Positions 1 through 4,466 of a stretch of DNA of 64,000 nucleotides are shown here, piece by piece. The position numbers and the translations under genes are program-made. Where the stretch lies: positions 1 to 64,000 of the forward strand of contig CAVXAT010000002.1 in NCBI GenBank assembly GCA_963759805.1. The letters run 5' to 3'. Each line of letters begins with the position of its first letter. Position 1 is the stretch's first letter. This DNA is from an uncultured bacterium (lineage in GTDB: Bacteria > Babelota > Babeliae > Babelales > RVW-14). The notes beneath the pieces were generated by a model. That model saw nothing but the letters and a program-made list of their open reading frames with translations. It ran no database searches and was not told where the DNA came from.

Positions 1-46
1 AGTGATTGTGTTAAAAGTCAAAACTTTTTTTAAAAATTTTCGAAAA

Positions 47-982
47 TTAAACTTTACATAACTCGCCTCTTTTTAACAGCGAATTGGCAAGAATAATTAG
101 TTTGCGCATAACGGCAACTATGGCCACTTTGAACGGTTTTTGATTTTTTATCAAGCGATCATAAAAGGCTTTAAGAATTAGGTTATGTTTAATGGTTGTT
201 AATGCGCACATGTAAATCTGATTTCTCGGGGTCATCCGTCCTCCCCGAATTCTTCTCTTACCCTTGAATTTACCGCTTTCATTGTCATATGGACACACAC
301 CAACAAGAGCCGATATTTTATTGTTACTTATTGTTCCAAGCTCTGGAACATGTGATAAAAGAAGAGCTGCAGAGGCAATTCCAATTCCAGGTATAGATTC
401 TAAAATCTCAGCTTTTTGACCAAGTTCGCTATCGTTTTTGAGTAAGCCAGATATTTGCGTATCTACCGTCTTGATTTCTGCGGTAAAAATTTTAATCAAA
501 CGTTTAATGCTCGGTAAACTCATTGCATGTGAAGGTTGCTTTAATCTTGTTTTTTCCGCAGCCAAAAACTTGGTAAGATCGTTTTTACGATTAACGAGAG
601 CTTGCAATTTGGCTTGATTCTCAGTTTTTTCAACCGTCGAATAGCCACGCGTATTTTTAGAACAAAATTCAGCAATTTTTCGTGCATCAATTTTATCGTT
701 TTTGCTTTTGCATCCAGTTGAAACAATAAAACCCCTTATTCGCCTCGGATCAATAATCCAAAGGTTGTAGCCATTCTTTTTTAGCAGCGTTGCAAGCAGC
801 TTTTCATATCCTCCTGTTGCTTCACATGCTATTTGTGCAATATCTTGCTGGGCTATTTTTTTAATGAAACCCTGTATCGCAGCTTCTGTGTTGTCTATTT
901 TTAAGAGTGTTTTTTCAGGATAAATGCAAATATCTAAGCTGTTTTTAGAAATATCGACGCCTACATATATATTTGATACCAT
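47..982 (-). CDS. IS110 family transposase/recombinase
   Basis: RuvC-like DEDD motifs VGVDISK, CEATGGYE, KNDKIDA; C-terminal SIPGIG and ESGKFKG (catalytic Ser region). ATG at 982 with SD GAGGT is preferred over the ORF-track start at 1024. Confidence 0.95.
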   Translation of the reverse strand: MVSNIYVGVDISKNSLDICIYPEKTLLKIDNTEAAIQGFIKKIAQQDIAQIACEATGGYEKLLATLLKKNGYNLWIIDPRRIRGFIVSTGCKSKNDKIDARKIAEFCSKNTRGYSTVEKTENQAKLQALVNRKNDLTKFLAAEKTRLKQPSHAMSLPSIKRLIKIFTAEIKTVDTQISGLLKNDSELGQKAEILESIPGIGIASAALLLSHVPELGTISNNKISALVGVCPYDNESGKFKGKRRIRGGRMTPRNQIYMCALTTIKHNLILKAFYDRLIKNQKPFKVAIVAVMRKLIILANSLLKRGELCKV

Positions 983-984
983 AA

Positions 985-1195
985 CGATTACCTCTGGCTT
1001 GTAAACATGCGAGATCGTACCCAATACGTCTCAAGTGATTGTTCGAGGTTGTTTAATGTAAGTTGATAGTCTCAAACTATGGCACGATCCCTTATGATCA
1101 GCTCGAGCACGAGATCTATCAACTTCCTTGAACAATCGATATTAAAAAAAATAACTCTGGAATAAAGTTAATAAAATTCTTATTTATTTAATAGA
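985..1195 (-). ncRNA. IS110 bridge RNA (target-binding and donor-binding loops)
   Basis: Target loop: stem 1060-1069/1116-1125, inner hairpin 1086-1099, guides at 1100-1108 and 1077-1083. Donor loop: stem 990-994/1045-1049, inner hairpin 1011-1032. Guide ACAATCACTTG (1042-1032) is identical to the predicted circle junction, and TACAAG (1003-998) is complementary to the left end. Exact RNA ends are inferred. Confidence 0.85.
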
Positions 1196-1210
1196 TTTCT
1201 AACATACAAG

Positions 1211-1238
1211 CTTTAGCGACGGCTGGGATCCATGGATT
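1211..1238. repeat. Half of a palindromic repeat interrupted by IS110
   Basis: CTTTAGCGACGGC followed by TGGGATCCATGGATT. The GGATCCATGGAT tail is shared with the REPs at 30246-30279 and 54546-54579. Confidence 0.7.
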
Positions 1239-2287
1239 AGTTGCTCCTATTGCCAAATTGCAGAAATTTGGAATAAATTTATCCATTATATTTTTAAGCA
1301 TTTTTTTGCAGAAAAATTTGCACGTCAGGATCTGTAAATGGGGAACCCCGACGAACAGGTCTATGTGCTGACGAATACGAATGAAAAATGAGAAAGACAT
1401 CCCTGAGAAAAATGCTCAAATATTAAAGAATCATTTAAACAACTCGATTTGAGCAATTCTTTTTCTGGCAGAAAGCTGAGATGTCAGAAAAAGTTGTCTC
1501 TATCATTCTTTGAATTGCCTCATGGCTATTGTATGCATTATGCGGCGTCAAAATGACATTGTCGAATTTTAATAACGAGAAGGCTTCAATTGCCTGTTTT
1601 AGATTTTCTGCCGTTGGAACTTCTTCCTTATCTAAAATATACTCTTGATGAATCCAAATATCTCCCCCTTCAAATGTATCCATTGCCACCCCTCCAAATA
1701 TACCATCTTTAAGCCCTTTGCGAATTGCTGAGATGTTGACAATTGGCCCACGGGATACGTTTATAAACAAGACGCCTTTTTTTAATAATCTTAAGGTATC
1801 AAAATCAATAAGATGATGCGTCTCTTTGGTATATGGAAGATGAATAGAGATAACATCTGAAAGTTTAAGCAGCTCTTCTAAAGATTTATATTCTAACTTA
1901 CATTCTGGGAGTACTGCAGGTTTGGGTGATATGTCATGACAAATGATATTCATGTCAAAACCATTTGCCATTTTAGCAAGTTTGCAGCCTATTTTCCCTG
2001 TTCCAATAATACCAATGGTTTTGCCTGCCAAATCATGCCCTCGTGTTGTTTTCTGATCAAAGGTCCCATGCAAACTTTGTGCAAATGTTACACCTAATCT
2101 TCTGGAAAGCATTAAAATTAATGCCATCGCATACTCAGCAACAGTCTCTTCTGCATAAGAAGGTAAATAAATAACAGCAATGCTATTTTTTTTGGCAAAA
2201 TTTATATCAATACGATCAAGTCCGGTAGCACGTGCGTTTATAAGTTTCAAATTTGGCAAAGCCTGCATAATTGATTGATCTACCCTT

Positions 2288-3357
2288 GGAAAGTTCTAAA
2301 ATGAAGTGCGACACCTTTCTGGTATACTCCAGAAAACTTGTAACAAAAGGTGTCGCTATGAAAGAATACACGCATTTGAAATTGGATGAAAGAAAAAAGT
2401 TGTACGTGAAGAAAAAAGAAGGCATGCCCATGGCTGAAATAGCTAGGGAGCTAAAAAGGGATAAATCATCGCTTTACAGAGAATTGGCCCGCAATACGGC
2501 AGATTCTGTTGTTGGCTATCTTCCGGACGAGGCTAACAACCTGGCCGAAGAGCGCAAGGCAATGCCCATCCCAAAGCTTGATAGGCAGCCAGAAGCCAAA
2601 GCTGTTGTAATTGAGCAATTGAAGGATGGTTGGTCGCCGGAGGTTATTGCTGGAAGAGGGAAACTTGAAGACTTCCCCTTTTAGGATATCCCATGAGGCT
2701 ATCTACCAATTTATATATGGCAACGAAGGGCAGAAGCTTGGATTGTACAAGTTTTTGCTACGAGCAAGGCCAAAACGTGGATTGGTTCACGGACGTAAGG
2801 CCCAAAAAGCTAAAATACCTGACAGGATATCCATCCACGATCGTCCAGTACATATCGCAACTCGAGATGAGTTTGGACATTACGAAGGCGATTTGACATT
2901 TTTTACCAACAATCAGTCCATGAATCTTGGGGTTATTGTAGAGCGAAAAACGCGAATGCTAACTCTTATTAAGAATGAATCAAAGCATGCTGCTATTGTT
3001 ATGAAGGGCATGTTTAACAAGTTGGTGAGTTGCCAAATTTTGCACGCAAATCCATAACCTTTGACAATGGTCTTGAATTTGTAAAACATACCGTACTCAA
3101 ACGATTTATGGGCATGGATACATATTTTTGCGATAAACACTCGCCTTGGCAAAAGGGCCAGGTTGAGCAAACGAATTCGATGTTGCATCGATATTTACCA
3201 AAAAACTCTAATTTGAAGGAGGTGACGCACGAGCAAATTAAATTTATAGAACACAAATTTAATAGTAGGCCCAGAAAGTGCCTGGGGTTTAGAACTCCGG
3301 CTGAGGCTTTTAGTGAACAATTATCAAAGTTTGTTGCACTTCAAACTTGACTTTACC
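2288..3357 (+). mobile_element. IS30 family insertion sequence
   Basis: Imperfect 26-bp IRs (GGAAAGTTCTAAAATGAAGTGCGACA / TGTTGCACTTCAAACTTGACTTTACC); 3-bp target duplication CTT (2285-2287, 3358-3360). Confidence 0.9.
2358..3350 (+). pseudogene. IS30 transposase with two compensating frameshifts (~2680, ~3030)
   Basis: HTH (SSLYRELARN), WSPEVIAG, HEAIYQFIY, GHYEGD, TFDNGLEF and WQKGQVEQTN are spread over three frames. Both shifts are at homopolymers, so they may be sequencing errors. Confidence 0.85.
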
Positions 3358-3442
3358 CTTGAAAGAAAGATAGAAAGTATTTCAACATCTTTTATCTGCG
3401 CAATACAGGTTGCATCAAATGGGGCAGTTGATGCTTTAATTA

Positions 3443-4466
3443 ACCTGAGTTCGACGTTATAAAAAGTTAAGCATGGGCTGGTAAATTAAGCATAAACTTG
3501 CTTCGAAGTGATGGCTTTTTTGGCAAGAAACAATATGCAACAAGTCCGGCAATAAGATTGACAACAAAGTTTGTTGGGCTGCGATGTCGAGAGTGCTCTA
3601 TTTGACAGGTTTCTTTGAGTATACAGTTGACTGATTCTATGATTCCACGCTTACTAAGGCCAAGTCTATCTTCCATTTCCATGATTTGAATTTTCATTTT
3701 TTTCTTCAATTTTGTAATGAGTTTTATGCCTTTTGCAAAAAGCGCGTCAAAGAGCTTCTTTGAAATATATCCTCGATCTCCCCAAAGCTTTCCGAAGCAC
3801 TTTCGGGCAAGGTTGGTTACTACAGATGCGTTGTTGTCGGCAACATTACCAGGTGTGAGCATGAAAGATACTATCTCTCCGCACTCATTGATAATCAGAT
3901 GAAGTTTAAATCCATAAAACCATCCAGTAGACGTTTTTCCGCGTGCAGCAATTCCAGAAAACACCTTGTTTCTGTTGATTCGCAAATTATGACATACCTG
4001 AAGCTTTGTTGAATCGATAAATCCAAAGCCTGTACATTTGTTTTTACAACACAAATTCATAAAAATTGTTAACGGCACAAGAGCCTGCGGAACCAGCTCT
4101 ATAAAGCGATTATAGCTGACGATCCCGTCGAATGCGCCCTTCAAATCGCCACATTCTTTATAATATTTTTTAAAAGTACGATATCCAGAGTGATGAAAAT
4201 AAATGAGTATCGTCAGAATGTCACTGAGAGACATTCTTTTCTGTTCTCTTTTTACCAATGCCGATAAATCTGCAGAAATTGAATGTGCATCTAGATGTGT
4301 TTTAAAATCTTTACAAAAATTGTCTACGTCATAAAAAATTTGAGTTAAAATCATTTTACTTCCCTTTTTGAAATCCTTTTTTAGATTGGTTTTAACATTC
4401 TAAATCTATAGAGGATTTGCTTTAAGGGAAGTCCTTTTCAAAGAATTTTAATTGTCGAACTCAGGT
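3443..4466 (-). mobile_element. IS982 family insertion sequence
   Basis: Perfect 13-bp IR ACCTGAGTTCGAC / GTCGAACTCAGGT; flanking direct repeat TAATTA (3437-3442, 4467-4472). Confidence 0.9.
3467..4354 (-). CDS. IS982 family DDE transposase
   Basis: SYNRFIEL, FIDST, GWFYGFKLH, GDRGY, IIESV and IEHSRHRS motifs. Confidence 0.93.
   Translation of the reverse strand: MILTQIFYDVDNFCKDFKTHLDAHSISADLSALVKREQKRMSLSDILTILIYFHHSGYRTFKKYYKECGDLKGAFDGIVSYNRFIELVPQALVPLTIFMNLCCKNKCTGFGFIDSTKLQVCHNLRINRNKVFSGIAARGKTSTGWFYGFKLHLIINECGEIVSFMLTPGNVADNNASVVTNLARKCFGKLWGDRGYISKKLFDALFAKGIKLITKLKKKMKIQIMEMEDRLGLSKRGIIESVNCILKETCQIEHSRHRSPTNFVVNLIAGLVAYCFLPKKPSLRSKFMLNLPAHA

Follow-up and report, generated by a model that had tools for sequence, protein, structure and literature searches.

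The transcript of an IS110-group insertion sequence is predicted to adopt two competing folds, one of which hides the Shine-Dalgarno (SD) sequence of its recombinase gene, and both folds are conserved. In the alternative fold a short leader segment, here called the anti-guide arm, pairs with the left donor guide of the bridge RNA and invades the strand that sequesters the SD sequence. Comparison of homologues indicates that this alternative helix is real, selected and restricted to one clade. The element lies at the start of the 64,000-nucleotide stretch of DNA that was analyzed (the window), which comes from an uncultured bacterium.

An IS110-group bridge recombinase element

The following features of the element and its left flank were assigned.

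1–1210, minus strand: IS110-group (IS621-like) insertion sequence, bounded on either side by a CT core; its right end coincides with the first position of the window
47–982, minus strand: recombinase gene, 311 amino acids, with PF01548 and PF02371; DEDD residues D10, E54, D96 and D99, and S236
1–9, minus strand: left donor with CT core (right end), the same letters as the left donor guide
16–21, minus strand: TTGACT, −35 half of the predicted junction promoter, 17 nt from TATGTT across the circle junction
1201–1210, minus strand: CT core, right donor TGTA and −10 half of the junction promoter (TATGTT, 1206–1201), from sequence
1209/1211–1286, no strand assigned: left flank, a REP-like repeat targeted by the element, with 16 further partial matches in the genome and empty sites

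The catalytic residues D10, E54, D96, D99 and S236 were invariant in 90 aligned homologues, and the sole PDB matches to the recombinase were IS621 and ISCro4 (E about 1e-34). Three near-identical copies of the element with differing flanks were found in the genome, as were matching empty sites. The third copy (G000:C1:2786-3995) has a single-base difference and an interrupted recombinase frame. For all three left flanks, empty sites were also located at other genomic positions, at least eight being among those listed. Joining the two ends generates a donor around the CT core together with a predicted sigma-70 promoter, TTGACT-17-TATGTT, from which transcription is predicted to start near position 1194. 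Positions 1201–1210 were at least 90% conserved in the alignment of homologue left ends, and the TTGACT half was present in most of the homologue right ends listed. A subterminal inverted repeat of ∼8 bp surrounds the donor (10–17/1197–1204), with one mismatch in this element and none in most homologues, compared to the 2–3 bp reported for the IS110 group in the accessible text.

The donor guides matched the joined ends (left 9/9, right 6/6), and in homologues with altered donors the guide tracked the donor. The right target guide was an exact complement of the right flank (7/7) in both copies that have one. The left target guide (1100–1108) was a loose match to the left flanks: among the 7 bases that precede the core, the three copies had 5, 3 and 1 matches. 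From its sequence, we conclude that this element is an IS110-group bridge recombinase system whose predicted bridge RNA is otherwise ordinary.

Those relatives that carry names belong to Babeliales/Dependentiae assemblies. A single-protein scan of genome contigs identified no relative, Rfam gave no match at family threshold over positions 1–3000, and none of the 11 matches in a viral pattern scan adjoined a transposase. Within positions 1435–4354 of the window, the end of a D-2-hydroxyacid dehydrogenase frame adjoins a second IS-like element, which is frameshifted (2271–3350), has an HTH_38 match and is, in our view, IS30-like; a DDE transposase gene is located nearby (3467–4354).

The SD sequence forms one strand of the donor-loop closing stem

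The bridge RNA and its leader contain the following segments.

1138–1194, minus strand: AU-rich leader with weak and variable 5′ hairpins, from folding and alignment
1126–1137, minus strand: anti-guide arm, consisting of an 8-nt core (1137–1130) and an AAGG extension
1060–1125, minus strand: target-binding loop with covarying stems, intact in both folds
1108–1100, minus strand: left target guide, inside the target-binding loop
1083–1077, minus strand: right target guide, exact complement of the right flank in the two copies with one
1045–1049, minus strand: anti-SD strand (CCUC) of the donor-loop closing stem, paired in 37/37 homologues as in the IS621 architecture
1034–1042, minus strand: left donor guide, 9 nt, equal to window positions 9–1 and following the donor in homologues with changed donors
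1011–1032, minus strand: inner stem-loop of the donor-binding loop, 7 of 8 pairs having changes on both sides
998–1003, minus strand: right donor guide, complement of 1210–1205
990–994, minus strand: SD sequence GAGGU, the 3′ strand of the donor-loop closing stem, from sequence and host SD use

On the transcript (minus) strand, ACCUC (1049–1045) pairs with GAGGU (994–990) to close a donor loop spanning 1049–990, and the SD sequence lies 7 nt ahead of the AUG of the transposase gene (982). Both loops were recovered, with compensatory changes in their stems, when a consensus fold was computed for 37 left ends, and the leader was unpaired in it; the CCUC/GAGG stem was paired in all 37. A preliminary description of this DNA had identified the closing stem as pairing the transposase SD sequence, and its coordinates and pairings were correct. 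By analogy with A116 of IS621, A1049 probably flips out when protein is bound, which would leave an SD stem of 4 bp. GAGG was found at −16 to −4 in 12.8% of 907 long host ORFs versus 1.5% further upstream, a sequence signal that this host uses SD sequences; the 16S rRNA 3′ end carrying the anti-SD was not found in the assembly. By eye, the donor loop of several distant elements is closed on an SD-like purine run.

IS621 resembles this element in its left-end RNA with a target loop followed by a donor loop, its CT core and its junction promoter (PMC11208160, PMC11208158, PMC13626964), as well as in its stem-A-4 bp-G motifs, DEDD and serine recombinase and REP-like target. Unlike the element studied here, the accessible description of IS621 contains no leader arm on the donor guide and no translational control, and the 5′ stem-loop of its RNA is called flexible and non-specific (PMC11208160, PMC11208158, PMC13626964).

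An alternative helix pairs the leader with the donor guide

The leader segment GAUUGUUCAAGG (1137–1126, minus strand) pairs with CCUCGAACAAUC (1048–1037) at 11 of 12 positions, the sole mismatch being A·C (1129·1045). The plus-strand version of this helix is paired at 12/12, with a U·G pair. The arm core (1137–1130) is complementary to G1044–A1043 and guide bases 1042–1037, and the AAGG extension invades the anti-SD strand. Both the minimum-energy and the centroid folds of 975–1200 contained the helix (z −3.2), so the 11/12 helix pointed out in the preliminary description is also the computed minimum-energy fold. When the leader was removed in silico, the SD stem and both bridge loops formed. 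None of 20,000 base-shuffles of the element's leader reached 11/12 pairs, although the target of this comparison was picked post hoc. The masked fold was favored by 5.3 kcal/mol in this element (about 5,400-fold).

The helix had been proposed to be mutually exclusive with the SD stem, to bury the anti-SD and half of the left donor guide, and to free the SD sequence. Exclusivity applies to the last three pairs and not to the 8-bp core, whose bases all lie outside the SD stem; a pseudoknot is therefore topologically possible. The folding programs used here score pseudoknot-free structures. Fold exclusivity thus rests on two or three invading pairs, which are absent in 6–7 of the 37 homologues. 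The anti-SD strand is indeed invaded, but the share of the guide that is covered is 6 of 9 nt plus G1044–A1043 rather than half. The predicted cost of opening the SD falls, yet the SD is freed only in part (3.1 versus 4.8 kcal/mol). In IS621 the G of the G121–G122 linker is bound by the recombinase (PMC11208158), and the counterpart of this linker here is G1044–A1043. As the arm covers G1044, the counterpart of G121, the masked form cannot act as an active donor loop.

Other pairings of this region were considered. A 5′ stem-loop alone does not explain the arm, as no conserved upstream partner was found and the best mean pair probability was 0.15; in 16/37 homologues the arm's first 4 nt fall within a hairpin from further upstream. 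Long-range pairing of leader positions 1143–1135 with codons 9–11 was rejected as well (p ≤ 0.05 in 4/37). The first 6 nt of the arm (1132–1137) can also pair with 1013–1018, the 3′ strand of the inner stem, in 26–30 of the 37 homologues.

The helix is conserved and selected within one clade

Homologues were collected from 90 loci, and those whose matches started within the first 15 residues provided 53 distinct upstream regions. Thirty-seven of the 53, with protein identities of at least 55%, constituted the clade set. L046, L028/L082 and L060 were excluded as partial matches (L046 shows the arm on inspection), and L035 and L043 are nearly one element. Because the 37 sequences are kin, all of the p-values overstate the case.

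The duplex between leader and donor strand was stronger than in 300 dinucleotide shuffles at p ≤ 0.05 in 31 of the 37 homologues and at p ≤ 0.01 in 20, whereas the control strand, the right guide, did so in 0/37. The arm columns underwent 2.6 changes on the recombinase tree versus 8.5 for the 51 upstream leader columns. The 8-bp core was paired in 96.5% of cells, including 12 G·U cells and 2 compensated cells. Substitutions cluster at the 2 sites at which a transition yields G·U in the transcript, with 11 events, compared to 8 uncompensated events at the 6 sites at which G·U would arise on the opposite strand. This bias toward the transcript strand gave p 0.002, or 0.02 when weighted by the leader substitution spectrum; the count takes into account that in L016 and L039 the best-pairing register differs from the aligned register. 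The sole compensatory event was a partner-strand change in the sister elements L016 and L019 that was matched by a change in the arm; that there are no others is explained by the near invariance of the partner strand. The anti-SD was invaded by at least 2 bp in 29/36 homologues compared to 10.8 expected with random spacers. In six elements the best duplex paired the guide alone and left the anti-SD uninvaded. The arm has decayed in L037, L026 and L020 and is weakened in L039. A lack of conservation among homologues had been named in advance as evidence against the proposed switch; instead, the helix was conserved and selected within the clade.

The situation was different in distant elements, of which 33 were tried; two had no leader and nine were re-parsed. 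Only 2 of the 31 scorable elements had the helix at p ≤ 0.05, with about 1.6 expected, and we therefore rejected it as a general IS110 feature. The two positives were L070 (p 0.010) and L127 (p 0.027). In L070 (42% identity) the guide is altered and a leader segment matches it at another position, which is within chance for 31 tries, and no further elements of this kind were found in four other genomes. In L072 (G235) the first 25 nt of the left end contain a segment complementary to the element's own changed donor-loop strand; this segment straddles the predicted start and falls outside the scored leader.

Two further observations concern the sequence around the arm. The 8 nt before it (1139–1146; alignment columns 87–97) are also conserved, and by eye about one third of the homologues have a second TTGTT located 11–16 nt upstream of the arm.

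Predicted consequences of the helix for translation

In transcripts cut before the SD sequence, the helix had P > 0.8 in 29 of the 37 homologues. With full leaders, 22 of the 37 had the helix and 10 had the SD stem at P > 0.5, the median gap between the two folds being 0.6 kcal/mol. Blocking the arm raised the cost of SD opening by at least 1 kcal/mol in 27/37, compared to 1/37 for a control block; as this effect is a consequence of the pairing, it is neither independent evidence nor proof of function. These folding calculations predict that pairing of the arm precedes transcription of the SD and that it eases SD opening.

Two comparisons count against a role in translation. Helix strength and SD-stem strength were uncorrelated among the homologues (rho −0.22, p 0.18). 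The SD of distant armless elements was not significantly more open than that of the arm-blocked clade (5.9 versus 7.1, p 0.16), and the notion that the SD is more locked in this clade than in armless relatives was unsupported.

A conserved, predicted antisense promoter in the first recombinase codons

A further conserved signal was identified on the opposite strand.

954–982, plus strand: predicted antisense sigma-70 promoter; −35 at 954–959, TG at 974–975 and −10 at 977–982

The layout is a −35 element, 17 nt and an extended −10, and transcription is predicted to start near 989 and to read across the SD sequence and the bridge RNA. A scan for antisense promoters was positive in the first 50 coding bases of 29/35 homologues versus 0–12 in other windows. 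The motif TGnTAnnnT was present at a fixed place in 34/37, its background being 0.0012 per position. Codon choice follows the motif: Val9 is encoded by GTC in 36/37 homologues versus 11% usage elsewhere, codons 1–3 keep A, TA and CA though the amino acids vary, and the antisense-promoter sites are the two most constrained of 61 fourfold sites. The motif was also found in 9/33 distant elements, so its range is wider than that of the helix. No intrinsic terminator was found within 880–1320. An internal sense promoter at TAATAT was rejected, as no −35 element rose above background.

Conservation of this promoter means that the helix could also act in the antisense RNA. In terms of energy, the duplex was stronger on the antisense strand in 19/37 homologues and on the sense strand in 6. 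Antisense folds contained the helix at P > 0.5 in 25/37, and in this element the 5′ seed was 80% unpaired. The pattern of substitutions favors action on the sense strand, although it does not settle the matter against the antisense strand. As an antisense RNA from this promoter would cover the SD sequence, we infer that it would be inhibitory.

A working model and its alternatives

Because the arm is predicted to hide the donor guide with the ribosome-binding site open, one transcript likely serves first as messenger and later as guide, probably once the enzyme has accumulated. In our model, the RNA would arise from the junction promoter or by read-through, which has been shown for IS621 in the text accessible to us (PMC13626964). 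The target loop would fold first and bring the arm beside the emerging anti-SD and guide, both of which the arm would then pair. The SD would emerge in a more open state and recombinase would be made. The recombinase would likely capture the donor loop, displace the arm, bury the SD and arm the guide, and the antisense RNA, predicted to start at the edge of the SD, could add a second layer of control on the open form. Three elements of the model are ones that we infer: triggering by the recombinase, reversibility of the change, and a resulting limit on recombinase output. We assign a probability of about 0.45 to the reading in which the protein-free transcript is translatable and guide-masked, and accumulating recombinase captures the donor loop, buries the SD and arms the guide. 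The fuller version, in which the mRNA is born guide-locked, its product flips it into an untranslatable armed guide and antisense RNA polices the open form, is more tentative. Against the model stand the single compensatory event, the restriction of the helix to one clade, the three or four decayed arms, and the 5.3 kcal/mol gap, which is large to close in this element. On paper, the affinity reported for the IS621 recombinase and its RNA in the part of the source available (2.1 nM; PMC11208160) fits the median gap but is strained by 5.3 kcal/mol, and this makes leader trimming a real alternative.

Another explanation, which we consider unlikely, is that the helix is a safety catch on the guide alone: the 8-bp core would restrain reactions that need only the donor loop, perhaps in a pseudoknot that stacks on the SD stem and leaves it intact, and any effect on translation would be incidental. 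The conserved part of the arm is indeed the 8-nt core without a base in common with the SD stem, six elements lack invasion, and the strengths of arm and SD stem are unlinked. Such reactions also exist, as the IS621 donor loop alone supports excision and donor-donor recombination according to the accessible text (PMC13626964, PMC11208158). This explanation does not account for anti-SD invasion in 29/36 homologues versus 10.8 expected, or for the three invading pairs in this element.

Less probable still is a one-way maturation in which the long transcript is always a messenger until a nuclease removes the AU-rich leader and the arm to yield the bridge RNA. In silico removal of the leader does restore the full bridge fold, this route sidesteps the 5.3 kcal/mol gap, and processing of a guide from a transcript shared with transposase mRNA has been proposed for the family in the accessible text (PMC11187229, PMC12288879). 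However, the IS621 bridge RNA, as described there, is about 177 nt from the junction promoter and keeps its 5′ stem-loop (PMC11208160, PMC11208158), and the near balance of the folds in most homologues (median 0.6 kcal/mol) fits a two-state RNA.

It is comparably improbable that the helix acts in the antisense RNA, where it would close the main hairpin and leave a 5′ anti-SD seed available for binding to the mRNA. The promoter signature in 34/37 homologues, the 12/12 helix here and its greater strength on that strand in 19/37, the antisense folds with P > 0.5 in 25/37 and the 80% unpaired seed of this element are consistent with this reading. On the other side, substitutions favor sense-strand G·U pairs, G1133 is kept in all intact arms although G>A is the commonest leader change, and only L070 has an arm-like match among the nine distant elements with the promoter motif.

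Least likely, the arm acts as DNA, whether as half of an inverted donor site, as a site for protein binding or within a promoter, with RNA pairing as a by-product: plus-strand 1132–1137 repeats six left-donor bases, the neighboring 1146–1139 is conserved, a second TTGTT is often found upstream and half-match recognition is reported for IS621 in the accessible text, but the final two bases of the core, like the G-rich extension, match the RNA-only G1044, A1043 and CCUC, which are absent from donor DNA, the site has no CT core, no −35 element at promoter spacing exceeds background, and the distance from arm to target loop varies by more than 10 nt.

Relation to known systems

The preliminary description took this form of autoregulation to be undescribed, which is correct in part. 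ISPpu9 already provides a known case of an IS110 leader that buries the ribosome-binding site, as well as of antisense control. There, as here, the leader buries the transposase ribosome-binding site, an antisense promoter lies in the first codons and the target is a REP sequence (PMC8450116, PMC12288879); according to the accessible text, the leader represses translation 26-fold and the antisense RNA Asr9 stimulates it (PMC8450116). In contrast to Asr9, which opens the site in trans, the arm described here is predicted to open it in cis. The −10 element of the Asr9 promoter overlaps the ribosome-binding site, whereas the predicted antisense start here is at or before the SD, so that the RNA would cover it. 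The description of ISPpu9, so far as accessible, proposes neither a role for the recombinase nor a masked guide.

The ISEc21 seekRNA is similar in that the upstream non-coding region is co-transcribed with the transposase mRNA and processing is proposed (PMC11187229), but the accessible text describes no alternative fold or link to translation. The antisense RNAs of IS10 (RNA-OUT), IS30 and IS200 are named as inhibitory in the part of the source available (PMC8450116). These elements resemble the arrangement predicted here in having an outward promoter whose antisense RNA spans the start of translation. In translational attenuators and autogenous operators, access to an SD sequence is controlled by competing helices. 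Unlike the transcript described here, none of these antisense RNAs, attenuators or operators is known to be also the guide of the enzyme that is regulated.

A cis helix that masks the donor guide, or feedback of a recombinase on translation, was not found in the accessible passages of running text in the IS110 literature. These two aspects, the cis arm and the recombinase feedback, are seemingly new.

Implications

As to how an IS110 transcript is shared out between its messenger and guide roles, the accessible literature describes co-transcription with presumed processing. A conserved anti-guide provides a concrete, mutable handle on this division, and is a natural case of a self-masked guide. 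If the model is true, a recombinase-sensing switch would set the ratio of protein to guide and delay excision and donor recognition until there is enough recombinase. For genome editing, native bridge RNAs of this clade could test weak unless the arm is omitted, and the arm itself is a template for conditional guides. The predicted antisense promoter in the first recombinase codons, which codon optimization would erase, would extend control of the ISPpu9 type far beyond Pseudomonas.
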